DNA of 64,000 bases, from positions 462,030-526,029 of the forward strand of contig CBDCQG010000001.1 in NCBI GenBank assembly GCA_965220565.1, given 5' to 3'. Positions within the stretch are counted from its first letter, which is position 1. Every line of letters starts with the position of its first letter. Position numbers and translations under genes: made by a program. This DNA is from Dehalococcoidia bacterium. Lineage in GTDB: Bacteria > Chloroflexota > Dehalococcoidia > UBA6926. The notes under the pieces were generated by a model. That model ran no database searches, had not been told where the DNA came from, and saw nothing but the letters and a program-made list of their open reading frames with translations. Positions 4,598 through 59,171 of this stretch are shown piece by piece.

Positions 4598-5413
4598 ATG
4601 GCTGATTTTGAGACTGTTATCTACGAGGTTGGCGACGACGGAGTCGCGCAAGTCACCCTGAATCGACCGGAGCGCCGCAACGCGCTCAATCCGCAGTTGC
4701 TCCACGAACTCGAAGAAGTCTTCGATGCCGTTGAGAGCGACGACAATGTGCGCATCGCCGTTATCACGGGTGCAGGCCCCGCGTTCTGCGCGGGCTACGA
4801 CCTCACCCCGAACCAGGAGAGGCCGACCTATAGCGCGACGGAGCGCTGGGAGCACACCCATTGGCAGGCCATTCTCGTCTCGCGTCCGTGGTACTCCCGC
4901 GTGCCGTGGATCGCGGCGGTGGACGGTCCCGCGGCCGCGGCGGGCAATGTCCTCGCCATGAGCTGCGATCTTATTGTCGCCTCTGAGCGAGCGCAGTTCG
5001 GCGAACCGGAGATCCGCCATGTCGCGCACTCGCCCCACGTTCTGCTGCCGTTCATCACGAGCAATCGCCACCTGCGGGAGTTCTATTACACGGGTGATTT
5101 CATCGACGTGGAAACCGCTGAGAAGTGGGACCTGGTCAACAAGGTTGTTCCGGCGGGAGAGGCGCTCAACGAGGCGATGGCCATGGCGCGTCGCATCGCG
5201 CAGGTGCCGCCGTTCGCTCTCCAGATGATGAAGCGCTCCATCAACGCCGTCTATGACGCGCAGGGCTTCAAGAAGGGGCAGGACGAGCACCTCATGCTGC
5301 GCATGATTGAGTCGCTCACCCCTGACGTTCCCGAGCGTGAGCACCTCGGCAATGTGCGTGTTGAGCAGGGCATGAGAGCGTTCCTCGATGCGCGCGACGG
5401 CCCGTTCCGCTAG
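4598..5413 (+). CDS. enoyl-CoA hydratase/isomerase (crotonase) family protein
   Basis: ORF from 4562; ATG at 4598 preceded by GGAGGG; crotonase fold motifs (VITGAGPAFCAGYDL). Confidence 0.8.
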   Translation: MADFETVIYEVGDDGVAQVTLNRPERRNALNPQLLHELEEVFDAVESDDNVRIAVITGAGPAFCAGYDLTPNQERPTYSATERWEHTHWQAILVSRPWYSRVPWIAAVDGPAAAAGNVLAMSCDLIVASERAQFGEPEIRHVAHSPHVLLPFITSNRHLREFYYTGDFIDVETAEKWDLVNKVVPAGEALNEAMAMARRIAQVPPFALQMMKRSINAVYDAQGFKKGQDEHLMLRMIESLTPDVPEREHLGNVRVEQGMRAFLDARDGPFR

Positions 5414-5460: not shown

Positions 5461-6012
5461 ATGGCCGATAACCAGCAGGGCGGGCACCCGCCCATCATGC
5501 ACGGGCATGGTAAGGCAAAGTTCTGCCTGAACTGTGGCGACGAACTCGCTGAGCGTGAGATTGACGGCGCAATGCGTCTTGCATGCGATTCCTGTGGATA
5601 CGTCCACTACACGGATCCCAAGGTTGCCGTCGGCGTCTTGATCGGTGACGACGAGGGACGCGTGCTCCTCATGCAGCGCGCCCACCATCCCCGCAAAGAC
5701 CTGTGGTCGTATCCGGCGGGATTCGTCGATGCCGGTGAAAAGGTGGAAGACGCCGCGATCCGTGAGACGCAGGAAGAGGTCGGCGTCACCGTCGAATTGG
5801 ACGACTTGCTGGGGATCCATTCAGAGACGGGCAACCGCGTGATCCTCGTCGTGTATCAGGGACACATCGTGGAGGGTGAGCCAAAGCCGGGCGACGAGAG
5901 CCTGGCAGTCGAGTACTTTGGCCCCGACGAACTCCCGGACATGGCCTTTGAACGGGACATCAAGATTATCCGGGACTGGCATCAGCGATTCACCGTGGCC
6001 GCGCCGCACTGA
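5461..6012 (+). CDS. NUDIX hydrolase with N-terminal zinc-ribbon
   Basis: 183 aa; CLNCG...CDSCG zinc ribbon followed by Nudix box GFVDAGEKVEDAAIRETQEEVGV. Confidence 0.8.
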   Translation: MADNQQGGHPPIMHGHGKAKFCLNCGDELAEREIDGAMRLACDSCGYVHYTDPKVAVGVLIGDDEGRVLLMQRAHHPRKDLWSYPAGFVDAGEKVEDAAIRETQEEVGVTVELDDLLGIHSETGNRVILVVYQGHIVEGEPKPGDESLAVEYFGPDELPDMAFERDIKIIRDWHQRFTVAAPH

Positions 6013-10045: not shown

Positions 10046-10498
10046 GTGCACACTGATCCCACTGTCGTCGTTCGTGTCGCCTTGCTGCGTGAGGGCGCGC
10101 GCCTGCCGTTCCGTGCCACACCCGGCTCAACGGGCTTTGACGTCTATGCCTGCCTCCACGACGGAGAAGAAGAGATCGTCGTTGGCCCTGACCCGGTACT
10201 GATTCCAACCGGCATCGCCCTTGAGTTCCCTCCAACTCTCGATGTCCAGGTTCGCCCACGCTCCGGCCTCAGCAGCAGGGGAGTGATGAGCACCGTCGGG
10301 ACCATCGACAGCGACTATCGAGGAGAGGTCTTCGTCACCATGTATACCGTGGGGAACCGCCCGCCCCACGTCGTTCGCAGCGGTGACAGGATTGCGCAAA
10401 TGGTCGTCGGAGTCCGCGCCGACGTTTCACTGGAGATCGCGGAAAGCCTTGGGGAGACCGAGCGGGGCGGCGGCGGACACGGCTCGACCGGCGCCTAA
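10046..10498 (+). CDS. dut: dUTP diphosphatase
   Basis: 150 aa, GTG start; dUTPase motifs (ATPGSTGFDV, RSGLSSRGV, GTIDSDYRGEV, GDRIAQMVV). Confidence 0.85.
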   Translation: MHTDPTVVVRVALLREGARLPFRATPGSTGFDVYACLHDGEEEIVVGPDPVLIPTGIALEFPPTLDVQVRPRSGLSSRGVMSTVGTIDSDYRGEVFVTMYTVGNRPPHVVRSGDRIAQMVVGVRADVSLEIAESLGETERGGGGHGSTGA

Positions 10499-10508
10499 CT
10501 CCCGCCGC

Positions 10509-10547
10509 TCATCCTGAGCCTGTCGAAGGGCATGAGCGCCCTCACAC
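10509..10547. repeat. dispersed hairpin repeat, family 3 (CTGAGCCTGTCGAAGGGC core)
   Basis: second copy at 43395-43430; shares CTGAGC...GAAG architecture with family 2. Confidence 0.6.
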
Positions 10548-11369
10548 CTCAAGCGGCGTATCGTCCCGGTTCGCCCATTCCCGCATGGAACCGTCGTAGT
10601 TCCGCGTGCTTTCGTAACCCACAAGCCGCATCACGAATACTCCGTGCGCCGCACGGATGCCGCCCTGTCAATACGTGTAGACGTTCTTGTCCGGCGTGAT
10701 GCCGTGTTCCGAAAGGAGTCGCCGTATCTCGGATGCCGACTTGAACCGGTGCGTCTCGCGGTCCATCAGGTTCAGCCATTCAAGGTGAACGGCGCCGGGG
10801 ATATGCCCCGCTCGCGCGTTGGCGCGGTTGTTGGACCCGTCCCATTCGCCGTCTGTGCGAACGTCCCAAACGACGGAATCCTCAAGCGTGCACGCCTCTT
10901 TCAACCCGTCCACCGTCACCAGCATGGAGTCGTCAAGGTTGGGGGTGAACGTCACGCCCTCCGCCCGCGCCGGTCGCTGGAAACTGATTGTGTGGCCGCC
11001 TGTGACCCAGCCACGCCAGCCGCCGTTCAGGACCCGCGCGTTGCGGTGCCCATACGTGTTGAGCACCCACCACAGGCGCGCTGCCGTCACACTCTGCGCA
11101 TTGTCGTACGAGATCACCACTGTGTCATCGCCGATGCCGAGTCCCTCACACATCTCCTTGAACTGCGCGGGCGTCATCATCAACGTGCGATTCGTGTCGG
11201 GGTCTTTGACGAAGTTGTCCGGGATCAGAACCGAACCCGGGATATGCCCCCGGTTGTAGCCTGCGTCCACGTCGCAATCCACGACGACGACGTTGGCGTC
11301 GTCCAGGTGCTCCGCCAGCCAGTCCGCCTCCACCAGGTATTCCGGATGGGCATAGTTCTCGGTCGTCAT
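10542..11369 (-). CDS. tandem-domain rhodanese sulfurtransferase with in-frame TGA at catalytic Cys codon (candidate selenoprotein; alternatively nonsense pseudogene)
   Basis: ATG at 11367-11369 (MTTENYAHPEYLVEADW) with AAGGGGGG SD; two rhodanese domains; TGA at 10668-10670 falls where RhdA/SseA-type enzymes have active-site Cys (..NVYTY-TGA-QGGIRAAHGVF..); 41 further in-frame codons complete the domain (..GSMREWANRDDTPLEV) to TGA 10542-10544. Confidence 0.6.
10628..10660 (-). promoter_or_regulatory. SECIS-like stem-loop immediately downstream of in-frame TGA
   Basis: mRNA: UGA-CAGGGCGGCAU-CCGUGCGGCGCACGG; hairpin begins 11 nt after UGA; outer GCAUC/GAUGC pairing possible. Confidence 0.35.
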
Positions 11370-11480: not shown

Positions 11481-12092
11481 ATGAGCATTATCGACAAGGC
11501 GCAGCGGATGTTCGGCGGCGCGGCAGCAGTGGACAAGGATCGCGTTCCGCCCGGCCAGACCGTCACGCAGAAGTTCCCGGTACTCTCGTACGGAAAGATC
11601 CCCGAGATCGACCTCGCCACGTGGACATTTGAGGTCATCGGCCTCGTCGACAACCCGATCAGCTTCACGTGGGAGCAATTCCTCGCTCGCGCCAACGATG
11701 GCGTCACCGCGGACTTCCACTGCGTCACGGGGTGGTCTCGCCTCGACAATCGATGGGAGGGCGTCTTCGTCCGCGATCTATTCGACGAGGCCCGCATCCG
11801 CCCAACGGCCACCCACGTCATGGCCCACTGCTACGGCGGGTACACAACGAATCTGCCGATAGCGGCGCTGCTGAATCCCGATGTCCTGATTGCTCACCGG
11901 CATGACGGAATGCCGTTGGAAACCGAACACGGCGGACCTGCCCGCCTCATCGTGCCCGACCGTTACGCCTACAAGAGCGCCAAGTGGATCAAGGCGCTGG
12001 AACTTATGCCGGAGAACAAGCGCGGCTTCTGGGAGCTTCACGGCTATAACGGCAACGGAGACCCGTGGCGCTCAGAACGCTACGACTTCTAG
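11481..12092 (+). CDS. sulfite oxidase-family molybdopterin oxidoreductase (MsrP/YedY-like catalytic domain)
   Basis: 203 aa; oxidoreductase molybdopterin-binding domain pattern (FHCVTGWS..., HRHDGMPL, GGPARLIVP); GAGGT SD. Confidence 0.8.
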   Translation: MSIIDKAQRMFGGAAAVDKDRVPPGQTVTQKFPVLSYGKIPEIDLATWTFEVIGLVDNPISFTWEQFLARANDGVTADFHCVTGWSRLDNRWEGVFVRDLFDEARIRPTATHVMAHCYGGYTTNLPIAALLNPDVLIAHRHDGMPLETEHGGPARLIVPDRYAYKSAKWIKALELMPENKRGFWELHGYNGNGDPWRSERYDF

Positions 12093-14655: not shown

Positions 14656-15726
14656 CTAATCCCCGTTCACTTCGTCACAGATTTGCCTAAGCAGGTTGAT
14701 GACAGCGTCATCAAAAGGGCCTGTTTTATATGGCCGAGGATTAGATGACGGCCAACCCCAAGCGAACTTCTCAGATAACGCTTGCCAGGCTAGGGGCGCT
14801 CTTTCTTGCGCATTCGAAGAGGTCTCTAAAGCCACAGCACCGTTAAGGCAGTAAATGGTGTAGAGAAAATGATTGTCTTGTGACCGCACACTAAGGGTGG
14901 CGCCTCGCTCTATACGGTGGCTCCAGACCCTGATGGATTGCTTCTCTGACAGTTCCTTTACAAGACTGATCACGTTTCTAAAGTCGTCTTGTTGTGTGGA
15001 CGCAAGCTCATTGACGGTATCGACGAATTTGTCAATATTTTCCACCAACGGATCCGAGGATGTGTTCCGTTGCTGAGCCTGCGTCTCCTGCTCACGGTTA
15101 CGTGCCGTGACCAGATAGTCTTGAGCCTCCGGCAACGGAATGACTTGATCAATGTCTAGTAGAAGCTTGCCCTCATGCCGGTACGCTCGGACTCGGACGC
15201 ATCTGATATCCAACCCCATCTCGTTCAGCCAGAGGACTGATGTTGTGATTTCCTTGTTGAAATCCTCGGAGACGAGAATAATGCGCGGGCGCTCTGTGGC
15301 GATCGAGAAGTCGCCATCTTCTGCCGTCAGGTTAAGATGTTCACGGATTCGTTCTTCAGCCGACTCATTGATGTTCTTGTTTCTCAAGTAGCGAGCGTGA
15401 CCGTCAATGATGCTCTGTGTCTGGAAATTTGCCAGCATCGCCGCATAGCGAATTGCCTGCAACTCCATATGAACGCCGTCACCGCGTTTCAACTCGACAA
15501 CGACCAAATTCCCGGATGAGTCAATGCAAAGCAGGTCAATGTATCGCCAGGCGTCCTCCCAATCCGTGAATTCGTCGGCGATAACGAATAGACCTTCCTC
15601 AATGAATTCTGGGTGCTCGCGGAGAGCTTCTTGGAGGTCCGCCTCTGCGACACTTTCTTCGTGGAATGACGTCCGGTCAATCCCAGTCAAAGTCTTGTTA
15701 GTCATTTCATAGAGCATCCGCTTCAC
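14656..15726 (-). CDS. PD-(D/E)XK nuclease, DUF91/NucS-like N-domain plus about 190-aa C-terminal domain of unknown function
   Basis: 356 aa in a 42-52% GC patch; IDLLCIDSSGNLVVVELKRGDG...ELQAIRYAAM resembles RecB-like D..(D/E)xK nuclease core; no recognisable motifs in C-terminal half. Confidence 0.6.
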   Translation of the reverse strand: MKRMLYEMTNKTLTGIDRTSFHEESVAEADLQEALREHPEFIEEGLFVIADEFTDWEDAWRYIDLLCIDSSGNLVVVELKRGDGVHMELQAIRYAAMLANFQTQSIIDGHARYLRNKNINESAEERIREHLNLTAEDGDFSIATERPRIILVSEDFNKEITTSVLWLNEMGLDIRCVRVRAYRHEGKLLLDIDQVIPLPEAQDYLVTARNREQETQAQQRNTSSDPLVENIDKFVDTVNELASTQQDDFRNVISLVKELSEKQSIRVWSHRIERGATLSVRSQDNHFLYTIYCLNGAVALETSSNAQERAPLAWQALSEKFAWGWPSSNPRPYKTGPFDDAVINLLRQICDEVNGD

Positions 15727-15775
15727 TTCCTTGTTCGCAATTGCCGATCCCCAAACACTTTACTGCCCCCCCTAT

Positions 15776-16090
15776 TCATGAGACTCCCATCCCCTCCCGC
15801 GGCCGTATCTCCTGTAACTGATCCGCCTCAGCGTGTTCAGCATGATAAAGGTCCCAGCGTAGTTGCAGATTCATCCAGAAACCCGGGGAATTGCCGAAGA
15901 ACCGGGCAAGTCGCAGGGCAGTGCTTGGTGTCACACCTCGGCGGCCCCGCACAATCTCATTCACTCGTTGATACGGCACCCTAATCGCCTCGGCCAGGTC
16001 ATGCTGAGTCATCTCCATGGGGTCGAGGAACTCTTGCAACAACATCGCGCCGGGGTGCGTCGGCTCCCTATCTGTCGGAATGCGTACCAT
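15776..16090 (-). CDS. HigA-family HTH (XRE) antitoxin-like protein
   Basis: 104 aa; PTHPGAMLLQEFLDPMEMTQHDLAEAIRVPYQRVNEIVRGRRGVTPSTALRLARFFGNSPGFWMNLQ matches HigA/VapI antidote family. Confidence 0.75.
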   Translation of the reverse strand: MVRIPTDREPTHPGAMLLQEFLDPMEMTQHDLAEAIRVPYQRVNEIVRGRRGVTPSTALRLARFFGNSPGFWMNLQLRWDLYHAEHAEADQLQEIRPREGMGVS

Positions 16091-16112
16091 GTCTTTTCAC
16101 CATTGATGTAGA

Positions 16113-16191
16113 TGGCGTCCCCGGTGGGACTCGAACCCACAACCTGCGGATTAGAAGTCCGCTGCTCTGTCCGGTTGAGCTACAGGGACGC
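16113..16191 (-). tRNA. tRNA-Arg (anticodon TCT)
   Basis: reverse complement gives GCGTCCCTGTAGCTCAACCGGACAGAGCAGCGGACTTCTAATCCGCAGGTTGTGGGTTCGAGTCCCACCGGGGACGCCA; 7-nt anticodon loop CTTCTAA; CCA encoded. Confidence 0.85.
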
Positions 16192-32511: not shown

Positions 32512-35503
<2,992 letters not shown>

Positions 35504-35611
35504 ACCTACTACTTACCTCGTTTCTACCCCACAATGGATGACCGCAATGGTCAGCACATGAAATCCCTTTTCTTGACCCGTTCACTTGTTTCGGCGCCAA
35601 CCGCCTACCCC

Positions 35612-35671: not shown

Positions 35672-35746
<75 letters not shown>

Positions 35747-36778: not shown

Positions 36779-37053
36779 CCAATCTCCTTACGCTGTAGCC
36801 ACATCCAAATGCCGCCCCACATGGCGGATGATTCATGCGCTCTCTTGTTCAGACCAAGCCAAATGAATCCTCATAATCTGTTTGCCGCTGCCGCCTAACT
36901 GCACATGCGGAGAGATGCTAGCGGATTGGTTGCAAGCGCCGTCTCTGACAGTGCGCCCGAATTTCTGACGAGCCTGCTGACCTTCATGTGGCTCGTAATC
37001 GACGTTGCGCATGGCCCGCCAATTCTTAGGAGATGTATCTAGAGTCCCCTTCA

Positions 37054-37267
37054 TTACTCCGTTGTCATATAGAGCGTCTCATCGTCAAGCTCACCACGCC
37101 GCTTCAAAGCATCGTACTCTTTCTGTGTTATAACCTTCATCGGCATGATTTCGAGATAACCTCTGACTGCAGACTTGATTCTCCTGAGTTTTAGAACACT
37201 CCAAACGACACCCACTAAAGCGGCAATCGTAGCAAAGAGATCTACTATGTCGATGAACTCAGCCACC
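37054..37267 (-). CDS. small membrane protein, hypothetical
   Basis: GTG 37265-37267 preceded by perfect GAGGAGG SD; single TM helix (FIDIVDLFATIAALVGVVWSVL) then charged tail; low-GC islet. Confidence 0.35.
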
Positions 37268-37420
37268 GTGCACCTCCTCACAGCCCCCTCTGAGGTGTCT
37301 TGACTCTCACGGGCAGGATGGCCAGTTACCACTTGGGGCCAGCACTTTTTGTGTCAGTTTACCATCGCCCTCTTTTCTTGCTTTTGTGACAAGCTCCCGT
37401 CATACACCCAGCCCTCATTC

Positions 37421-37452
37421 CGGCGAAAGCCGGAATCCATCATCCCCGTCTA
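37421..37452. repeat. dispersed hairpin repeat, family 1 variant (CATTCCGGCGAAAGCCGGAATC)
   Basis: same architecture with CCGGC/GCCGG stem. Confidence 0.55.
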
Positions 37453-37564
37453 ACGGATAGTCTTGGCCAAACTGCTTGCCGATCCTCGATCCGAAGACCA
37501 TATTCAATTGATGGCAAGCCCAATACCTAGGAACACGGCACAAAGGGACTATAGGAGAAAACAC

Positions 37565-38449
37565 ATGGTTGACGGCCTAAACATCTTCATCAATGAAGAC
37601 CTTAGCAAGCCAGAGAATCGCGTAAACCTCGCATTGTTCTCACTAATGCAACAAGACTGGTTCCGCGTATGGTTCTTGGAACAACTTGGCCTTGATGTGA
37701 ACGCTGTTGTTTATCCGCCAGTGAATGTACGGGGTCGGCGTCCAGACTTGAAAGTCGAGCGGGATGGGAAGCCCGTCGCATGGATCGAAATCGAGCTTGG
37801 CAAGAATGAGAAACAAGTTCGAGATTACCAAAGCATTTTCAGAGAGACGGTAAAGACGGTATGGGGCAAGAGAGAAGATAAGGGCGACCTCAGCTTAGAG
37901 GAGGTTAGGGAGTTTGTCATCGAGAAGCGCGACCAAGGGTCCCTGTCCTTGCAGGACAAACTTCATTGTGAGTATCTGGCGAAACTGATTGAGAAAGGAC
38001 TGAACGGACATACAGCGGCTCAACCCCGCGCAGGCGTGTCAGAGATAATGCGCAAGGAGCATCTAATCGTGGCGCTGGAGGGAGCCCTTGGAGACCGGCT
38101 CCACTACACCATTGGGCCTGTTGGCAGGGATTTCATCAGAGCTGATACCGTTGGGCAAAATGGAATCTCGCTCAAGGTGAATCGACGCGATAGGTCGGGT
38201 TACGTAGCGATATTCTCCATCTCGGCAGGCTCTCGGATTATCTTTCCAAGCAGGCAAAAGCTCGAGCGTTGTCTGCGAGGGAAAGATAATGCAATTGGCG
38301 ACTATTTGCGCTTTATTCAAGACGAAATGCGCTGTGACGTAGACGTTGATCGAAACAACGCTACTCCTCAGCCAAGCCTGGAAGAGCACAGGAGTCAGCT
38401 CGTGGATTCTGTTGGCGAACTCTCTAAGCTGATCTTGGCGCTGGCCTAG
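37565..38449 (+). CDS. hypothetical protein (possible PD-(D/E)XK-like motif)
   Basis: ATG 37565 with AGGAGA SD (track ORF from 37463 overlaps repeat); about 50% GC; RPDLKVERDGKPVAWIEIELGK segment loosely resembles nuclease core. Confidence 0.45.
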   Translation: MVDGLNIFINEDLSKPENRVNLALFSLMQQDWFRVWFLEQLGLDVNAVVYPPVNVRGRRPDLKVERDGKPVAWIEIELGKNEKQVRDYQSIFRETVKTVWGKREDKGDLSLEEVREFVIEKRDQGSLSLQDKLHCEYLAKLIEKGLNGHTAAQPRAGVSEIMRKEHLIVALEGALGDRLHYTIGPVGRDFIRADTVGQNGISLKVNRRDRSGYVAIFSISAGSRIIFPSRQKLERCLRGKDNAIGDYLRFIQDEMRCDVDVDRNNATPQPSLEEHRSQLVDSVGELSKLILALA

Positions 38450-38483
38450 CAAGAACCCTCCCGCTCTCTGCTATTCTGTCCAC

Positions 38484-38957
38484 ATGACGGCATCCAATCG
38501 GTCAAACGGCGCCAATCCGGACGCCCGCCAACAGGCGCGTGACATCATCACCGGCTACGTCGGCCACAAGGGCGCGCTCCTCATGGCCCTGCTGGACGTC
38601 CAGTACCAGCTCAACTACATCCCGGAAACGACCGTCGATGACGCCGCCGAGATCCTTGGCTACTCGAAGCCGGAGGTGTGGGGCGTTCTCTCCTTCTACT
38701 CCGATTTCTCCGTGGGGCAGGGCAGCGACCACTTCATCGACGTGTGTATCGATGCCCCGTGCCACGTCACCGGCGCGCGGTCCATCGAACGCGCCATTCG
38801 CGACGCCGTGGCTGATTCGGATGTGGAGGTGCGCCCTATCTCATGCCCACGCCTCTGCAACCAGGCCCCCGTCGTCGCCTACGACCAGCAATGGCGGGGC
38901 CAACTGACGCCTGATACCGCCGCCGAATTCGCCCGAAACATGGGAGTTGCTTCCTGA
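38484..38957 (+). CDS. nuoE: NADH-quinone oxidoreductase subunit E-like [2Fe-2S] thioredoxin-fold protein
   Basis: 157 aa; Cys ligands in CIDAPCHV and CPRLCNQAP. Confidence 0.8.
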   Translation: MTASNRSNGANPDARQQARDIITGYVGHKGALLMALLDVQYQLNYIPETTVDDAAEILGYSKPEVWGVLSFYSDFSVGQGSDHFIDVCIDAPCHVTGARSIERAIRDAVADSDVEVRPISCPRLCNQAPVVAYDQQWRGQLTPDTAAEFARNMGVAS

Positions 38958-38959
38958 CT

Positions 38960-40651
38960 ATGTCCTCTGATATCTACACCACACTCAAGCAAGAAGCTGA
39001 CGCCGCGTGGGCGGAGTGGGATGACCCGTCCATTGCCCGCGTCAGCGTCGGCATCTCTGCTGCCGCCCTCACCGTCGGCGCAGGCGAGACGCTTGAGGCA
39101 ATCCAGTCGACACTAGGGGAACTCGATATCGACGTTCGGCTGCTGGAAGTCGGAGACATCGGCTTCTCGTGGGCCGATCCCGTCGTTCACATTGCCCCGC
39201 CCAACATGCCGCGCATCACCTACGGAAAGGTGACGGCCGATGCCGCGCCCCAACTGATCCGTGATGTGCTTGTGGACGGCAACCTGCGACCGGATCTTGC
39301 GCTCGGCGTACAGGGCGATACACCCATCGACGGCGCAGACATCCCTCTCCTCGATGAGCAGAACTGGATGCGCGACCAACTCCGCCTCCTGATGACCAAT
39401 TTCGGCCATATCGAGCCGGGCAATTTGATGCACTACGTGGCCCGTGGCGGCCTGGAATCGCTGGACAAGGCGCTGAATGAGATGTCGCCGCAGGACGTTG
39501 TGGATACCGTCCGCAACTCCGGCCTGCGCGGGCGCGGCGGCGCGCTTTTCCCCGCCGGCGTCAAGTGGAGCTTCATGGGCCCGCCCGGCCCCGGAGACCG
39601 CTATCTCGCCATCAACGGTGAGGAGGGCGACCCCGGCGCGTTCACGGACGCTGCCATCGTCGAGAATGATCCACATCGCCTCTTGGAAGGCATCCTGATT
39701 GCCTCCTATGCGATGGGCGCAAACAAGAGCTATATCCACATCCGCGCCGAATACCGGCTACCCCTTGAGCGGCTCCGCCGCGCGCTCCATGAGATGGAGG
39801 AGCGGGGACTCGTTGGCGATAACATCATGGGCACCGACTTCTCCCATGAGGTCGAGATCGAGGCCACCGGCCACGCCTATATCTGTGGTGAAGAGACGGC
39901 GCTGATGGAGTCCGTTGAGGGCAAGCGCGGCGCGCCCCGCCCACGCCCGCCGTTCCCCGCCGCCTACGGCATCTTTGGCCGACCGACCACCATCAACAAC
40001 GTCAAGACGATTTCCTATGTTCCGCATGTGCTTGAGATAGGCGCGGAGGCATTCGCCGCCATCGGCACGGAGAACGCGTCCGGCACGGCGATGTTGTCAC
40101 TTTCCGGCCATATCAATAAACCCGGAATTGCAGAAATCCCCGTTGGAATTAATTTGGCCGGAGTTATTGAAAACGTTGCGGGCGGCATTCGCGGCGGCAA
40201 GAAAGTGAAGGCTCTCCAGTGCGGCGGCCCGCTCGGCGGCATCATGCCCGCTTCCGAGATGGACATGCCGGCTGAGTTCCAGGCCATGACCGCCAAGGGC
40301 AGCCCGCTCGGTTCCGGCGGCATCCTCGTGCTTGATGAGGACACCTCCATCGTGGATCTCGTCAAGAACATCGCTGAGTTCATCGACGCGGAATCGTGCG
40401 GCAAGTGCTTTCCGTGCCGCAAGGGAGCGACCCATATCTCCCACCTGCTTGCCAATATCATGGAGGGCTACGGGCAGGAGGGCGACCTCGACAAGATACA
40501 GAACGTTGGCACGTCGATGGTGCAGGGCTCGCTGTGCGGCCTGGGGCAGCTCGCGCCCGGCGTCCTGAACAGCGCCATCCGCTATTTCCGTGAGGAATTT
40601 GAGGAGCATATCAGGGCAGTTTCTGCCGCGCCGGCCCACGCGCAGCCCTAA
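38960..40651 (+). CDS. nuoF: NADH dehydrogenase flavoprotein subunit F-like (NuoF/HoxF/FdsB family) with N-terminal extension
   Basis: 563 aa; GLRGRGGALFPAGVKW (FMN/NADH site), ESCGKCFPCR 4Fe-4S; about 130-aa N-terminal extra domain. Confidence 0.85.
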   Translation: MSSDIYTTLKQEADAAWAEWDDPSIARVSVGISAAALTVGAGETLEAIQSTLGELDIDVRLLEVGDIGFSWADPVVHIAPPNMPRITYGKVTADAAPQLIRDVLVDGNLRPDLALGVQGDTPIDGADIPLLDEQNWMRDQLRLLMTNFGHIEPGNLMHYVARGGLESLDKALNEMSPQDVVDTVRNSGLRGRGGALFPAGVKWSFMGPPGPGDRYLAINGEEGDPGAFTDAAIVENDPHRLLEGILIASYAMGANKSYIHIRAEYRLPLERLRRALHEMEERGLVGDNIMGTDFSHEVEIEATGHAYICGEETALMESVEGKRGAPRPRPPFPAAYGIFGRPTTINNVKTISYVPHVLEIGAEAFAAIGTENASGTAMLSLSGHINKPGIAEIPVGINLAGVIENVAGGIRGGKKVKALQCGGPLGGIMPASEMDMPAEFQAMTAKGSPLGSGGILVLDEDTSIVDLVKNIAEFIDAESCGKCFPCRKGATHISHLLANIMEGYGQEGDLDKIQNVGTSMVQGSLCGLGQLAPGVLNSAIRYFREEFEEHIRAVSAAPAHAQP

Positions 40652-50521: not shown

Positions 50522-52933
50522 ATGTCAGGTCCACTGTCGCATCTGCGAGTTGTCGATGTTACCGCATCGCTTGCCGGAGCCTACGCCGCCCGCCTCCTCG
50601 GTGAGTTGGGCGCGGACGTTGATCGCGTCCGCCGCATGAGGGATCTCTATGTCCGCCTCAAGGGACGGGAGATGCCGGAGTGGGATCCGCTCCTGCATCG
50701 CTCCCTCAACGCCAACAAGTCTCACCGCTCTGACACCGACGCCGAGACTGTCACGCCCGAATCCCTTTTGGCCGCGTTGGACGGACAGAATGTCCTTGTT
50801 GAGGACGTTGGGATGTTCGACGGCGATAAGCCCTTCCTTGATTGGGATGCCGTTCACGCTCGCTACCCTCATCTGTCCGTCGTTTCTCTGACACCCTATG
50901 GCAAGGACGCTCCATTGGCCGATCTGCCGCCAAGCGACCTCGCAACGTGGGCGCTCTGCGGCATGGCGTGGACAACCCCGGGCCCGCCCGACACCACCTT
51001 TGATCTCCCTGAAGAGCCCCCGCTCATGCCCACCGGCGCGTCCGTTCCCTCGCTCATGGCCGGGGCGGTCAGCGTCGTGGGAACACTCGCCACGTTGTAT
51101 GCCGACTCCGGCAGCGGCAACGGCACGGGGCCGGGAGTGACCGGCACGCGCATCGAGATCTCTGAACTGGAGGCCATCACCGCCCTCAACTACCATCCCG
51201 TCACACAGCGCGAATACCTGGAATACGTGCTTGACCGCGGCCCCAACATCCTTGCGCGGCAGCCGAACTGCTACATCCCATGCAAGGACGGCTACATCGT
51301 CATCGTCGCCATGAGCCCCCGCCACTGGGAGCAGTTCGCGGAGGTCATGGGCAGCCCGAAGTGGGCATACACCGAGGACTTTGACGACGGCACGAAGCGC
51401 GCCATGAACTGGGACGCCGTCAGCGTGCTCATGACCAACTGGACGATGGAGCACACTGGCGAGGAGATCACCACTCAACTGCAGGCCCGGAACATTCCCG
51501 CGTTCTGGGCAACCTCTCTTGAGGAGGTCATAACCCACGAACACGTCAAGGCGCGGCGCTACATCCGCCACGTAAAGGCACAGGACGGACAGGAGATCCC
51601 GTTCACCGGCGCGCCGTTCATCCTCACCGGCTACCCGCGGAACGAGGACGGCAAGCCGGAAGCCGATGGCTCTGTCCCCGCACCAACGTCTGTGAACGGC
51701 GCTGCTGCGTCGCACATGGGCTCAACGCCCAGTCTCCCGCTTGCGGGCCTCCGCGTCGTTGATTTCGGTCAGTACATCGCGATCCCGTACTGCGCCAAGT
51801 GGCTCGCCGCCCTCGGCGCGGACGTGATCCAGGTGGAAAGCCGTGAGAATCCCGCCGATTTCCGCAACTCCCCGCCGTTCGCCGGTCAGATTCCGGGCAT
51901 GAACCGCGCAGGCGCGTACAACACCCTCAGCATGGGCAAGCGCGCCATCCCCATCAACCTCCGCACCGAAGAGGGCAGGGACGTTGCCCGCCGACTGTGC
52001 GCGACGGCCGACATCGTGCTCGAGAACTTCTCAACCGGCCTGATGGAGCGATGGGGGCTTGGCTACAGCGACATCGCGCCGCTCAACCCGCGCGTCATCT
52101 ACACGTCCGTCGCCGCGTTCGGCAGGAGTGGCCCGCTCAAGGACTACAGCGGCCTCCACAGCATCATCAACGCCTTCTGCGGCCTCGCGGACGTTACCGG
52201 ATATACGGACGGCCACCGCCGGCTGCTCGGCTCCTACTTCCCGGATGTCGTGTCCGCTACCTACGCCACCATGGCCACGCTGACGGCCCTCCACGACCGC
52301 AAGCGCACCGGCATGGGACATCACGTCGACGTCGCGATGACCGAGGCCCTGATGACGCTCATCACGGAACCGATGGTCGCTCGCGCCATCGGCAGCTACG
52401 AACCCGTCCGCGACGGCTCGCATCACCCGTTCCATGCGCCGCACAACGTCTATGCAACGAGCGGCGATGACCAATGGATCGCCATTACGGCCCGGACCGA
52501 CGCCGAATGGGCCGGCCTGTGCGGCATCATTGATGGCCTTGCCAACGATGATCGTTTTGCCACACCTGAATCCCGCAAGCAGAACGAGGCCGCGCTGGAT
52601 GAGATCATCGCGGCATGGGCGGCATCGCGTGACAAGTACGAGACGGCCGACCAACTGGCCGGCGCGGGCGTGTCCGCCGCCCCGATCCTCGACCCGCTTG
52701 AAGTTGTCGAGCACCCGCATCAGCGGGCGCGCGGCTTCTTCGCCACGATTGACCACCCGGAGGCCGGTCCACGCCGAACGGCCAAAGTGCCCTGGCAGGT
52801 GAACGGCGAGTACGCGGGTGAACTGCGCCGCGCCCCTATGCTCAATGAGCACACGGACGCCATCCTCACCGAGATCCTCGGCATCGGCCAGCAAGAGACG
52901 CAGGAACTGGTAGCCGCCGACGCCCTGAGATAA
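50522..52933 (+). CDS. fused tandem CoA-transferase family III protein (two CaiB/BaiF-like domains)
   Basis: 803 aa; domain 1 LSHLRVVDVTASLAGAYAARLLGELGADVDRV; domain 2 LAGLRVVDFGQYIAIPYCAKWLAALGADVIQVE. Confidence 0.75.
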   Translation: MSGPLSHLRVVDVTASLAGAYAARLLGELGADVDRVRRMRDLYVRLKGREMPEWDPLLHRSLNANKSHRSDTDAETVTPESLLAALDGQNVLVEDVGMFDGDKPFLDWDAVHARYPHLSVVSLTPYGKDAPLADLPPSDLATWALCGMAWTTPGPPDTTFDLPEEPPLMPTGASVPSLMAGAVSVVGTLATLYADSGSGNGTGPGVTGTRIEISELEAITALNYHPVTQREYLEYVLDRGPNILARQPNCYIPCKDGYIVIVAMSPRHWEQFAEVMGSPKWAYTEDFDDGTKRAMNWDAVSVLMTNWTMEHTGEEITTQLQARNIPAFWATSLEEVITHEHVKARRYIRHVKAQDGQEIPFTGAPFILTGYPRNEDGKPEADGSVPAPTSVNGAAASHMGSTPSLPLAGLRVVDFGQYIAIPYCAKWLAALGADVIQVESRENPADFRNSPPFAGQIPGMNRAGAYNTLSMGKRAIPINLRTEEGRDVARRLCATADIVLENFSTGLMERWGLGYSDIAPLNPRVIYTSVAAFGRSGPLKDYSGLHSIINAFCGLADVTGYTDGHRRLLGSYFPDVVSATYATMATLTALHDRKRTGMGHHVDVAMTEALMTLITEPMVARAIGSYEPVRDGSHHPFHAPHNVYATSGDDQWIAITARTDAEWAGLCGIIDGLANDDRFATPESRKQNEAALDEIIAAWAASRDKYETADQLAGAGVSAAPILDPLEVVEHPHQRARGFFATIDHPEAGPRRTAKVPWQVNGEYAGELRRAPMLNEHTDAILTEILGIGQQETQELVAADALR

Positions 52934-53871: not shown

Positions 53872-53964
53872 CATTCCGCCTTCCCACATACCCAAACAGG
53901 GGGTTGACAGGCTCAGAGAGTCCTCTATGATATAGAACATTAGTTCCATACAAGGAGGCCCGCC

Positions 53965-55304
53965 ATGCTCATCAAAAGCACTCCGGACGTCTACGAGAAG
54001 CTCCGCCACCTTGGCGGAATGGCCACCGATGATATCCTCTCGCCGGCCGAGCGGTCGGACGGGATCACGCGGCCGGGTGTTGGCGGGGAACGCGTGGGCC
54101 CGCGAGGCGGTGCAACTCCTCATGCCGGCGTCTACAAGGCCGCCATGCCGAACGGCAAACGCATTTCATTGATGCGCGTGATGTTCACCGATCACTGCAT
54201 CATGGACTGCCACTACTGCCCCAACTCCCACTGGGTCCCGCGCAGGCGCTACGGGTTCAAGGTGGATGAACTCGCGCGGCTGTTCAATGAGATGCACCAG
54301 CGCCACATGGTTGACGGACTCTTCCTCAGCTCCGGGATCTTCAAGAATCCCAACGCCACGCAGGAGCGCCTGCTCGATGTGGTGGACGCGGTCCGCTCTC
54401 GCTACGGATTCCGCGGCTATGTTCACCTGAAAGTGATGCCCGGCACGAATGACGACTCGCTCCTGGAAGCCAGCCAGCGGCTCGGCGCGCGCCTCTCCAT
54501 CAATATCGAGTCGCCGTCGCCGAACACCTCCGCAAAGTCAGCAAGATGAAGGACTTTGACAAGGGCATCATCGACCCGATGGGGCGCATCAGCGACCTCA
54601 TGCAGGAGAAGTACGGCGGCGCGGTCGGCCAGGCCACGCAGATGGTCGTCGGCGCGGCGGATGAGTCGGACTGGGACATCTACAACCGGATGACGAGCCT
54701 CTACGGAAACTACGGGTTCAAGCGCGTCTACTACTCGGCGTTCCGCCCCGTCAGGTACACGCCACTGGAGGAGCACCCCGCAACGCCGCCCGCGCGGGAG
54801 CATCGCCTCTACCAGATGGATTGGCTGTCGCGCATCTACGGCTACGACTCCGAGGAATTGCGCCCCGCCTTCAGCGACGAGGGCTTTCTTGACACGCGCA
54901 CCGACCCGAAGCTCATGATCGCGATGACCAATTTCGAGCGCTTTCCGGTGGACGTAAATCAGGCGACCGAACAGGAACTGCTGCGTGTCCCCGGTGTCGG
55001 TCCGTTGGCGGCCAGCCGCATCATCGGGCAGCGGCGCGAGCACTCAATCACACAGACCAGGGAACTCAAGGCGATGGGTGTGGTGATGAAGCGCGCGCTT
55101 CCGTTCCTGCGCTTCCCGGGCCACAAACCCAGCCCCGCCAAGCAAGCTGAGATGCCCCTCTTCCAGGAGCAGCCCGCGTCTCCCCTCATCTCGGCGAAAG
55201 CCGGAACCCGGCCATCCAGACGCACGATGGAACTGCACAACGCGTCGGCGGCCAACTGCTCCACGTGCCCCCTCAACCCCGGCACCTGCGGCATGGCAGC
55301 GTAA
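53965..55304 (+). pseudogene. putative DNA modification/repair radical SAM protein (TIGR03916-like) interrupted by a frameshift
   Basis: ORF 53965..54549 has CIMDCHYC radical-SAM cluster motif and stops mid-domain; ORF 54546..55304 in another frame continues the core (QMVVGAADESDWD) and ends with HhH (LLRVPGVGPLAASRI); frames switch within 54500-54548. Confidence 0.55.
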
Positions 55305-56779: not shown

Positions 56780-56852
56780 CCCCAAACTTGAGCGTCTCCC
56801 CCGCGTGGGATAGTCTGAACACAGAAACGTAAACTCCCGGGAGGTTTCGGAC

Positions 56853-59171
56853 GTGACCCAGGCATCTCCTGCCAACACAATCACCATTACGATTGACGGA
56901 CGGCAGGTCACTGCCCCTGCGGGGTCTACCATCCTCGAGGCAGCCGCAGAGGCCGGTATCTACATCCCCACCCTCTGCTACGACGAACGCCTCAAGGCCT
57001 ATGGCGCCTGCCGCATGTGCATGGTTCAGCAGGTCGACCGCCCCGGCTTCGCCGCCGCGTGCGTCGCCCCCGCCATGCCGGACGCCGCCTACAAGACCAA
57101 CTCCGACGAAACCGTCGAACTCCGCCAATCCGTCCTCAACCTGCTCATGTCCGAGCACCCGCACGGATGCCTGACGTGCGACCGTATCGTTCACTGCGGC
57201 CCCAACGATATCTGCTTGCGCAACGTCTCAGTCACAGACCGCTGCGTCGTCTGCCCGCAGAACCAGCGATGCGAGCTGCAGGCCACCGTCGAGATCGTCG
57301 GCGTCACGGAACAACTGCTCCCGTATACCTACCGTGAACTGCCGATCCGCACCGAAGACCCGCACATCGACCGCGACTACAACCTGTGCATCTCCTGCGC
57401 GCGCTGCGTGCGTGTCTGTGATGAGGTCATCGGCGCTGAGGCCATCTCCATGGTGGATCGCGGCGACCGCATCCTCCCCGGCACGCCGAATGACGTGCCC
57501 CTCTCTGACCCGCTGACCGGCTGCACCTTCTGTGGCGCGTGCGTGGATGTCTGCCCCGTGGGCGCGCTCACGGAAAAGGACAACAAGTGGGCCGGCCTGC
57601 CGGACACCGGCGTCACAACGGTCTGCACGGAATGTGAGATCGGCTGCCAGGTCACTGCGGAACTCCAGGACGGTCGCCTGCTGCGCGTGACTCCTGACAT
57701 TGATGGCGGCGCGAACGGCGGCTTTGCCTGCATCCACGGCAAGTTCGAACTCGCGAACGAGTCCAACAATGAGGCCCGCCTCATCAGCGCCATGATCCGG
57801 GATGCCAACGGCGCGCTTGCCGAAGCGTCCTGGGACGATGCGATCACTGCCGCTGCGGACGGTCTCGGCGGCCATGCCGCCGGTTCTGCTGCCGTCGTGA
57901 TTTCTCCCCGCGTCGCAAATGAGGACGCGTGGGCATTGAATCGTCTCGCACGTGAATCCCTGCAGACCGAATTTATTGCGATGGCATCGTCCGCGCCAAT
58001 TCAGGCGGGCAGGGAACTCGCCGCAATGTTCGGCAGCGCCGCCAATGCCAACCCTATCCGGGACATCGCCAAGTCCCGCGCCGTTCTCGTGATCGGTTCA
58101 GATATCGAAATCACCCATCCCGTCGCGTCCTACCAGGTTCACAAGGCCATCAACTACAACGATGCCGCTCTCATTGGCATCGGCCCCGTCGCCTACCCGG
58201 AGCTTGGCCGCGCGTCTGAGCGATGGCTTGCCTGCGCGGAGGGAACTGAGCCCGCCGTCTTGCGCGGCATCCTCCGCGCGCTGCTCGATGCCAATCTTGT
58301 GCATGATGAATTCACCGAAGAGTCGATAGACGGCCTGCCTGCCTTGTCTGAGAGTCTTGAGAACACGACGGTTGAAGACGCGGCGGCTCAGGCAAACGTC
58401 TCAGCCGACGATCTCCGTTGGGCTGCCCGCATCATCGGCACGTCTGCCCCCGCTGCTCTCATCTACGGGGTGAGCGAAAATGATGCGCCCGGCCTGGCCA
58501 CGCTGATTGCCTCAATCGCCGCGGTGACGGGCAACGTCGCAAACGCGCAGGGCGGCGGGCTGCACGTGCTGCGGCCCGGCGGCGGCAACGTGCAGGGAGT
58601 CAGTGACGTGCTTGGCGCAGACGCCGCTACGCTTGACGACGTCATTGATTCCATCGAGTCCGGCGCCGTCAAAGCCCTCTACTGGACGGGCGGCATCCCC
58701 GCTGAAATGAGTGACTCTTCCCGCGCACGGCTGCTCACCGCCCTGGGTCGCCTTGAGTTCCTGGTGGTGCAGGGCCTTGTCATCGATGACGAGCTTGCCG
58801 CGCTGGCCAGCGTGATGATTCCCGCCGCGGCTGCCGTCGAGCGTGAGGGCACCTACACGAATACCGAGCGGCGCGTCCAGCGCGTCCGCCCCATCAAGGA
58901 CGCCGCGGGTGAAGCGCAGCCGGTTTGGCGCGCTCCGGTTGAGATTGCAAACCGACTCGGCGCATCGGGTTTCGGCTATGAGAATGCTGACGCGATCCTT
59001 GCCGACATCGTTGCGGCTGTTCCCGGTTACGCCGGCATCACCGCCGAGGCGCTGGAATCTCGACTCACCGGCCCCACGTGGCCGCTCCGGGACGATGGCG
59101 CGGATGAGCGCCTCTACCAGGGCGGCGCGTTCGGCAACGCCAGTGGCCGCATCCGCCTCGCCGCCGTTTAA
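56853..59171 (+). CDS. nuoG: NuoG-like Fe-S molybdopterin-fold protein (formate dehydrogenase alpha-like, lacking Mo-ligand Cys/Sec)
   Basis: 772 aa; N-terminal 2Fe-2S, HPHGCLTCDR His-ligated cluster, two CxxCxxC(P) ferredoxin motifs, CTECEIGC...C cluster; position equivalent to FdhF Sec140 is Ser/Ala. Confidence 0.8.
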   Translation: MTQASPANTITITIDGRQVTAPAGSTILEAAAEAGIYIPTLCYDERLKAYGACRMCMVQQVDRPGFAAACVAPAMPDAAYKTNSDETVELRQSVLNLLMSEHPHGCLTCDRIVHCGPNDICLRNVSVTDRCVVCPQNQRCELQATVEIVGVTEQLLPYTYRELPIRTEDPHIDRDYNLCISCARCVRVCDEVIGAEAISMVDRGDRILPGTPNDVPLSDPLTGCTFCGACVDVCPVGALTEKDNKWAGLPDTGVTTVCTECEIGCQVTAELQDGRLLRVTPDIDGGANGGFACIHGKFELANESNNEARLISAMIRDANGALAEASWDDAITAAADGLGGHAAGSAAVVISPRVANEDAWALNRLARESLQTEFIAMASSAPIQAGRELAAMFGSAANANPIRDIAKSRAVLVIGSDIEITHPVASYQVHKAINYNDAALIGIGPVAYPELGRASERWLACAEGTEPAVLRGILRALLDANLVHDEFTEESIDGLPALSESLENTTVEDAAAQANVSADDLRWAARIIGTSAPAALIYGVSENDAPGLATLIASIAAVTGNVANAQGGGLHVLRPGGGNVQGVSDVLGADAATLDDVIDSIESGAVKALYWTGGIPAEMSDSSRARLLTALGRLEFLVVQGLVIDDELAALASVMIPAAAAVEREGTYTNTERRVQRVRPIKDAAGEAQPVWRAPVEIANRLGASGFGYENADAILADIVAAVPGYAGITAEALESRLTGPTWPLRDDGADERLYQGGAFGNASGRIRLAAV

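Follow-up and report, generated by a model that had tools for sequence, protein, structure and literature searches.

A predicted selenocysteine codon at the catalytic position of a tandem-rhodanese sulfurtransferase gene in Dehalococcoidia

In this study, we examined a 64,000-nucleotide stretch of DNA from a Dehalococcoidia bacterium (contig CBDCQG010000001.1 of assembly GCA_965220565.1, positions 462,030 to 526,029 of the forward strand), referred to here as the window, and within it a minus-strand gene for a tandem-rhodanese sulfurtransferase whose reading frame contains an internal TGA codon. The original prediction, made from the sequence letters, had described an open reading frame (ORF) that starts at 11369, meets a TGA at 10668-10670 and continues in frame for another 41 codons to a stop at 10542-10544, and it had proposed that the internal TGA encodes selenocysteine (Sec) in place of the catalytic cysteine (Cys). 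Every one of these coordinates was confirmed in the sequence: 233 sense codons precede the TGA, which is codon 234, and the tail of 41 codons reads QGGIRAAHGVFVMRLVGYESTRNYDGSMREWANRDDTPLEV. From the comparisons presented below, the in-frame TGA is very probably a genuine Sec codon, and the gene product would accordingly be a 275-residue tandem rhodanese in which Sec234 replaces the catalytic Cys. The gene is made up of the following features:

10542..11369, minus strand: full-length predicted selenoprotein coding sequence of the tandem-rhodanese sulfurtransferase, 275 codons including Sec234, plus the stop
11367..11369, minus strand: ATG start codon, read from the sequence; a purine-rich GGGGGGA precedes it, and MTTENYAHPE aligns with residue 2 of 1uar
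11004..11327, minus strand: N-terminal rhodanese domain, residues 15-122, the best Pfam stretch
10668..10670, minus strand: in-frame UGA, the predicted Sec234 codon at the catalytic position of the C-terminal domain, aligned with the catalytic Cys of 1uar and 3hzu
10641..10657, minus strand: predicted selenocysteine insertion sequence (SECIS) hairpin UCCGUGC-GGC-GCACGGA, present in the minimum-free-energy fold, with its GGC loop at 10648-10650
10545..10667, minus strand: 41-codon continuation with the remainder of the catalytic loop (QGGIRA) and the final helices and strands, conserved in frame in 81/81 sequences
10542..10544, minus strand: true terminator TGA, read from the sequence; the orthologs stop at the same place

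For the domain and structure searches of the 275-residue product, a Cys was placed at the TGA. Two Pfam Rhodanese domains (PF00581) were found (E 1.6e-35), of which the N-terminal one has neither Cys nor Sec at its loop position (..ISYDNAQS..) and the C-terminal one carries the loop U-Q-G-G-I-R-A. The product aligns from end to end with the solved structures of a Thermus rhodanese (1uar, E 1.3e-44), Mycobacterium SseA (3hzu, 1.9e-36) and RhdA (1e0c, 4.6e-35). In agreement with the original prediction, the TGA sits on the catalytic Cys, with vvyCRIAERSSH in 1uar and vvyCRIGERSSH in 3hzu as compared with ytyCQGGIRAAH in the query, and the 41 codons behind it complete both the catalytic loop and the domain, the alignment to the solved structures reaching the conserved domain end ..YDGSxxEWxN..P. 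The best NCBIfam match is the SseA equivalog model NF008557, with 127.7 bits as compared with a cut-off of 250, and by this profile the gene product would be classed as related to SseA and not as an SseA equivalog. A second model, NF041203 (rhodanese_LYCAU), reaches 37 bits as compared with a cut-off of 115 and is matched via the N-terminal domain of the window protein; a dedicated model for the Sec-rhodanese family is absent from NCBIfam.

The conservation of the internal TGA was investigated in an ortholog set of 80 relatives, one genome per species, which together with the window gave 81 sequences. Nearly all of these relatives are Dehalococcoidia or SAR202-type metagenome-assembled genomes (MAGs), some of which are closed chromosomes, while a single scaffold is binned as Candidatus Entotheonella; the tblastn matches span residues 1-275 in the 80 genomes, and identity to the window protein ranges from 49 to 97%. 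The catalytic codon is TGA in 77 of the 81 sequences (76 of the 80 relatives) and TGC or TGT in the other four (L060, L068, L078 and L080, two of which are Tepidiformaceae), with the same downstream frame. The tail has a length of 40-43 codons in all 81 sequences, and no further in-frame stop was found in any of the 81. Moreover, the true terminators are mixed (TAG 32, TAA 27 and TGA 22), while the internal stop codon is always TGA and never one of the others. In pairwise comparisons, the substitutions downstream of the TGA amount to 13935, 8782 and 33998 at codon positions 1, 2 and 3, respectively, which gives a third-position fraction (f3) of 0.60, the upstream value being 0.52, and the residues Q, G, I, R, A, A, L, G, D, S, E, W, N and P of the tail are invariant. 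The excess of third-position substitutions downstream of the TGA therefore indicates that the tail is a translated sequence on which purifying selection acts. Taken together, a conserved UGA, orthologs with a Cys codon and conserved flanks on both sides of the codon are the standard comparative signature of a selenoprotein gene.

These data speak directly to the possibility that the gene is a pseudogene, in which a nonsense mutation from TGC or TGT to TGA, or a sequencing error, truncates the enzyme ahead of the catalytic loop. This is compatible with the window sequence taken by itself, and gene callers as well as the public annotation give a 233-aa product. However, 76 of the 80 relatives have the same TGA and the same frame, which goes well past what chance could produce, and the 77 TGA-containing orthologs, over an identity range of 49-97%, have no other stops or frameshifts, the same tail and substitutions dominated by third positions; a sequencing error cannot be shared by independent assemblies from many studies. 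The single-base nonsense alternative, which had been named in the original prediction, is excluded by this lineage-wide conservation of the UGA, the tail length and the frame, and we regard the pseudogene explanation as a whole as extremely improbable. The original prediction had also pointed to Cys-containing relatives together with decay of the present copy as a sign against its proposal; four Cys orthologs do exist, but there is no decay anywhere.

A search over 5.8 billion proteins illustrates how such genes are currently annotated. Among the best 120 homologs listed, which are 94-64% identical to the query, 119 are called at 232-237 aa and cover 85% of the query, one is called at 267 aa, and all 120 end at the Sec codon; two of the public records, MYD36759.1 (234 aa) and NQW23686.1 (232 aa), are annotated 'sulfurtransferase'. 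These calls of around 233 aa are a systematic mis-annotation. The fact that gene callers end the product at the TGA could be taken to mean that a truncated 233-residue protein is functional as a non-catalytic module, and that the 123 nt downstream are conserved as a small ORF or a regulatory RNA. Catalytically inactive rhodanese domains do exist. However, the tail shares its frame with the upstream ORF in 81/81 sequences and does not open with a start codon of its own. What it encodes is precisely the missing part of the rhodanese fold, catalytic loop included, and in four genomes a Cys codon fuses both parts. In addition, the conservation downstream is at the protein level (f3 = 0.60) save over the hairpin, and a functional truncated product is very unlikely.

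It could further be argued that UGA has become a sense codon throughout the genome, as in translation tables 4 or 25. The in-frame TGA itself, and nothing more, fits this idea. Among the confident ORFs of the window, the stop codons are TAG in 14, TGA in 13 and TAA in 12 cases, so that TGA terminates 13 of 39, including the NUDIX gene, which ends at TGA 6010-6012, and in this respect the earlier statement that TGA is otherwise a normal stop holds true. TGA is also the terminator of the rhodanese gene itself and of 22 of the 81 orthologs, and only one TGA of the window has both a coding continuation and a hairpin. The probability of a genome-wide code change is therefore next to nothing.

When the window was scanned for more selenoprotein genes, the rhodanese alone passed. 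A site at 52800 was considered as a selenoprotein candidate and rejected as an alternative-frame artefact. The window also contains, at 56814-59171 (plus strand), a gene for a 785-aa molybdopterin oxidoreductase resembling NuoG or the formate dehydrogenase alpha subunit (Pfam Molybdopterin, Fer2_4 and Fer4); as it is without an in-frame stop, it is not a Sec-type FdhA.

The predicted SECIS hairpin has a 7-bp stem and a GGC loop, is 17 nt long and begins 10 nt past the UGA, which places it at nt 14-30 counted from the U of the UGA. Codons +4 to +9 hardly vary among the 77 Sec-type genes (ATC 70/77, CGT 62/77, GCG 76/77, GCG 77/77, CAC 65/65 and GGA 54/65), as compared with a third-position entropy of 1.25-1.86 bits at the remaining invariant residues of the gene that have four-fold degeneracy. 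We consider these frozen synonymous sites to be the strongest evidence, and they indicate that the RNA itself matters. The immediate context of the UGA is similarly uniform, with TAT before it in 75/75 and CAG after it in 74/77 genes. With the published sequences included, pair 15-29 is C-G in 51, A-U in three and G-C in one sequence, and the loop is GGC in 55/55. Apart from one C·A mismatch in four sequences the stem is almost invariant, which is why covariation is scarce. An intact hairpin is not kept in the four Cys-type orthologs. Over 10450-10800, no match to a SECIS family was obtained from Rfam at E <= 10; this was expected, since short bacterial SECIS elements are without a curated model. 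Taking hairpin and codon together, the proposal that Sec stands at the position of the catalytic Cys is borne out by a conserved UGA, a SECIS-type hairpin in the canonical position and an intact frame.

One Sec-type ortholog with a compensatory A-U at pair 15-29, L076 (KI931786.1, a scaffold of Candidatus Entotheonella sp. TSY1; 50% identity), stands out by its origin. Its scaffold is binned as Tectomicrobia among otherwise Chloroflexota matches, which could reflect horizontal transfer between sponge symbionts or mis-binning.

Several observations weigh against the interpretation of the TGA as a Sec codon served by a SECIS element. Support for the hairpin comes mainly from conservation, with covariation confined to the one pair 15-29. 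The lower stem (columns 5-13 with 33-41) is unsupported, being 81.6% paired as compared with 81.1% in shuffled sequences, and RNAalifold retains the upper stem only. Nor is the 76-nt fold more stable than its shuffles (z = -0.55); the case for the hairpin is one of conservation and not of energy. Furthermore, the hairpin is lost in the subclade L017-L030 (except L020, L023, L026 and L027) and in L054 and L064. As for the decoding machinery, no tRNA-Sec is present among the 35 tRNAs identified with ARAGORN in the window and the 80 loci, those of the window being tRNA-Arg and tRNA-Met only. Likewise, selA, selB and selD were not found in the 1.66 Mb of window and loci, which cover about 1% of the genome of each relative and about 4% of the 1.6-Mb contig of the window; here neither tblastn with E. 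coli SelA and SelD nor a SelD profile made from 59 matches of the protein search described next gave a match in the 1.66 Mb. A protein search seeded with Dehalogenimonas SelD (query from the supplement of PMC4561486) listed 120 matches, which are the nearest relatives of the query, and none of these lies on the contig of the window or on the chromosomes of the relatives; with this coverage, neither negative counts as evidence that the genes are absent.

In the subclade in which the hairpin is lost, a replacement hairpin, GCGAACA-GUY-UGUUCGU, is found. It has 7-8 bp and is shifted downstream by about 8 nt, the loop falling at nt 29-31, and occupies nt 19-43 overall. The genomes with this replacement are mostly open-ocean MAGs, and the protein sequence shows a co-occurring change from AAH-G-V to AAN-S-L. 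This appears to be a replacement of one predicted SECIS by another inside the coding sequence.

Information on the Sec trait in related bacteria comes from published work and from a second candidate gene. Within the class, the trait is documented for Dehalogenimonas lykanthroporepellens, which has six selenoproteins, SelA and a Sec-type SelD (the latter in the supplement of PMC4561486). Among MAGs of sponge symbionts, the SAR202-affiliated bins bin16, bin22 and bin127 have SelA (1, 2 and 4 matches, respectively) and SelB (1 match each), and some of the close relatives in our set bear names suggesting sponge metagenomes, such as L004 (SB0661_bin_39) and L011 (APA_bin_32). In a screen of 7,867 in-frame-TGA junctions from the window and the loci, filtered for composition and frame, one extra family was recovered beyond the rhodanese, an AhpC-TSA/Redoxin (TlpA-like) thioredoxin-fold protein with the motif ..YFHATW-U-G[ST]C... 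This candidate is present in seven genomes with a Sec-rhodanese (L051, L053, L059, L061, L062, L067 and L070) and lies 6-8 kb upstream of it, with the TGA at 4739-4741 (plus strand) in L070 and at 2334-2336 in L067. The TGA is followed by 103-105 conserved codons (f3 0.60 and 0.66), and in most copies by a hairpin GCGUCG-AGUUR-CGGCGU at nt 14-30, in which U·G is exchanged for C-G and U-A; the candidate corresponds to the 'thiol-disulfide isomerase-like / Prx-like UxxC' families, which are already known as selenoproteins. The hundreds of unfiltered in-frame-TGA clusters among close relatives were discarded as alternative-frame or antisense artefacts. Together, this gene and the published SelA, SelB and SelD provide favourable, indirect support for the Sec trait.

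The same observations help to judge a further alternative, selenium-free read-through, according to which a near-cognate or suppressor tRNA inserts Cys, Trp or Gly at the UGA, perhaps stimulated by the hairpin, to give a full-length sulfur enzyme. That the sel genes were not found in the window and loci is in line with this idea, and downstream hairpins can in general stimulate read-through. However, it is hard to explain without Sec why an inefficient stop should be kept for so long at the catalytic Cys, despite the existence of orthologs with a Cys codon. The hairpin is in the SECIS position, has a G-containing loop and is common to published selenoproteins; moreover, a second gene of the UxxC type has its hairpin in the same register, and SAR202-affiliated bins are reported to have both SelA and SelB. 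Based on these points, selenium-free read-through is unlikely.

If, as we propose, Sec is inserted at codon 234, the UGA at 10670-10668 would not be read as a stop and the hairpin at 10657-10641 would act as a bacterial SECIS. It would recruit SelB-GTP-Sec-tRNA(Sec) to the ribosome, Sec234 would be inserted and the ribosome would then translate the 41 codons that remain before the stop at 10544-10542; these decoding steps are deduced from the signals in the sequence and from the usual route of Sec insertion in bacteria. By analogy with the Cys rhodaneses, the enzyme would be a sulfurtransferase of the thiosulfate or mercaptopyruvate type, in which the selenolate takes up the sulfane sulfur, forms an Se-S(H) intermediate and passes the sulfur on to an acceptor. 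From rhodanese chemistry, a lower pKa and a higher nucleophilicity would be expected for selenium as compared with sulfur. An activity in sulfane-sulfur transfer is inferred here from the fold and the conservation of the loop only.

More tentatively, and with somewhat less than even confidence, we suggest that the Sec-rhodanese may be a near-universal, lineage-defining selenoenzyme of marine and sponge SAR202-type Dehalococcoidia, whose sulfur metabolism would then be partly selenium-dependent, and that its SECIS may have been replaced at least once together with the change from AAH-G-V to AAN-S-L, which would make it a case of coding-constrained SECIS turnover. For annotation, the practical consequence is that the public products of around 233 aa lack the catalytic residue, although some are named 'sulfurtransferase', and that metabolic reconstructions of SAR202 and Dehalococcoidia miscount a probably active selenoenzyme and overlook a selenium requirement. 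The original prediction appears to have correctly identified a genuine case of recoding, which suggests that reading of the raw sequence is able to find selenoprotein genes.

Divergent from the rhodanese gene, and 112 bp from its start, lies a gene for a 203-aa sulfite-oxidase-family molybdoenzyme (Oxidored_molyb, Pfam E 1e-39) at 11481-12092 (plus strand). This neighbour is a weak hint at a link to sulfite or thiosulfate metabolism and no more than that, because only members of the window's own clade (L001 and L003-L015) keep the two genes paired; for the same reason, an operon or neighbour argument was dropped when the mechanism was considered.

Other parts of the window deserve mention in their own right. 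Two stretches, 14656-16189 (minus strand) and 36833-38449, are islands of low G+C content at third codon positions (GC3), with a GC3 of 0.54-0.65 as compared with 0.7-0.85 elsewhere. One of them adjoins tRNA-Arg(tct) at 16113-16189 and contains, by eye, a HigA/XRE-type antitoxin; this island may be integrated mobile DNA, and close relatives differ by more than 3 kb in the spacing between tRNA-Arg and the rhodanese gene. The 23S rRNA gene at 32512-35505 (plus strand) is complete and is followed by tRNA-Met at 35672-35746 (plus strand); no 16S or 5S rRNA gene was detected in the 64-kb window and the rRNA genes appear to be unlinked. By eye, NuoE-like and NuoF-like genes are located at 38433-40651 (plus strand), and a radical-SAM gene of the 'DNA modification/repair' type appears to be split into two ORFs that overlap in different frames, at 53944-54549 and 54453-55304 (both plus strand), which could reflect a frameshift, a pseudogene or an error in sequencing.

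The minimal SECIS of E. coli fdhF is a SelB-binding upper stem-loop of 17 nt, located on the 3' side at 11 nt from the UGA. The main hairpin described here resembles elements of the fdhF type in its length of 17 nt, its distance of 10-11 nt from the UGA, its location within the coding sequence and the G that opens the apical loop. It differs from them in having a GGC triloop, which turns into a CGGCG pentaloop when the closing pair is open, and in lacking an obvious bulged U, and the hairpin of one subclade differs further in having its loop at nt 29-31.

A close counterpart has been described in the Sargasso Sea. Zhang, Fomenko and Gladyshev (2005; PMC1088965) reported a 'Rhodanese-related sulfurtransferase' (COG2897), represented by three sequences, as a new selenoprotein family, and according to the legend of their Figure 3 a predicted SECIS was included for it; the same family is listed again in the Global Ocean Sampling survey and in a 2026 review, where it is named 'form 4 (rhodanese-related sulfurtransferase)' with the motif UxxG. 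The original prediction was thus accurate in stating that reports of rhodanese-like selenoproteins exist but are few, and the very same family is part of the 2005 selenoproteome. The three sequences in the supplement of PMC1088965 are AACY01016424 (..KAIYTYuQAGVRAAHANFVLQLIG..YDGSMGEWANLEDTPLVK), AACY01314374 (..IATYuQGGIRAAHVF..) and AACY01110644 (..IVTYuQGGIRAAHVMF..YDGSMGEWANRDDTPLIK). Over 72 aa, the window protein shares 57% identity with the first of them, and over 154 aa it shares 47% with the last (E 3e-51). Sec is at the same catalytic position, the motif T-Y-U-Q-[GA]-G-[IV]-R-A-A-H ... Y-D-[GA]-S-M-x-E-[WY]-A-N is shared, and the TAT-TGA-CAR context is present in two published genes, with TAC in the remaining one. 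A CGUGC-GGC-GCAYG core is present in the same register in all three Sargasso sequences, with a G·U change in one of them, and this core has a GC content of 77-85% within ORFs of 28-44% GC. Based on the shared motif, the identity, the hairpin core and the codon context, the window gene is an ortholog of the published selenoprotein family, with the same predicted Sec site and SECIS. It also has the tandem architecture, the UxxG motif (as U-Q-G-G), the similarity across the Sec site and the SECIS core of 'form 4', and the window family is probably identical with that form. There is no difference in kind between the two; the window genome has 62% GC and the fragments have 28-44%. The family, its Sec position and its SECIS have therefore been known since 2005 and the biology is not new. 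What is added here, unlike in the Sargasso fragments, is the full two-domain gene in its genomic context, together with the findings that the predicted Sec form prevails among SAR202-type Dehalococcoidia, with 76 of 80 species genomes, that two alternative predicted SECIS hairpins are used by different subclades, that a UxxC candidate co-occurs with the gene and that truncation in annotation is systematic.

With the Cys-type tandem rhodaneses, which are thiosulfate or 3-mercaptopyruvate sulfurtransferases (1uar, 3hzu, Azotobacter RhdA, 1e0c, and E. coli SseA, 1urh; E 1e-44 to 1e-30), the window protein shares two domains, an N-terminal one with neither Cys nor Sec at its loop position and a catalytic C-terminal one with a loop of six residues behind the nucleophile. 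It differs from them in its nucleophile, which is encoded by UGA and predicted to be Sec, and in its loop, QGGIRA as compared with CRIAERS, CGSGVTA and CQTHHRS. The other rhodanese selenoproteins listed in the 2026 review are forms 1-3, which are single-domain proteins of the COG0607 type with UxxS or CxU motifs and include NF041203 (rhodanese_LYCAU), and form 5 (TsoB). Like the window protein, these have the rhodanese fold and a Sec in or beside the active-site loop; unlike it, they are single-domain or fusion proteins and have other motifs.

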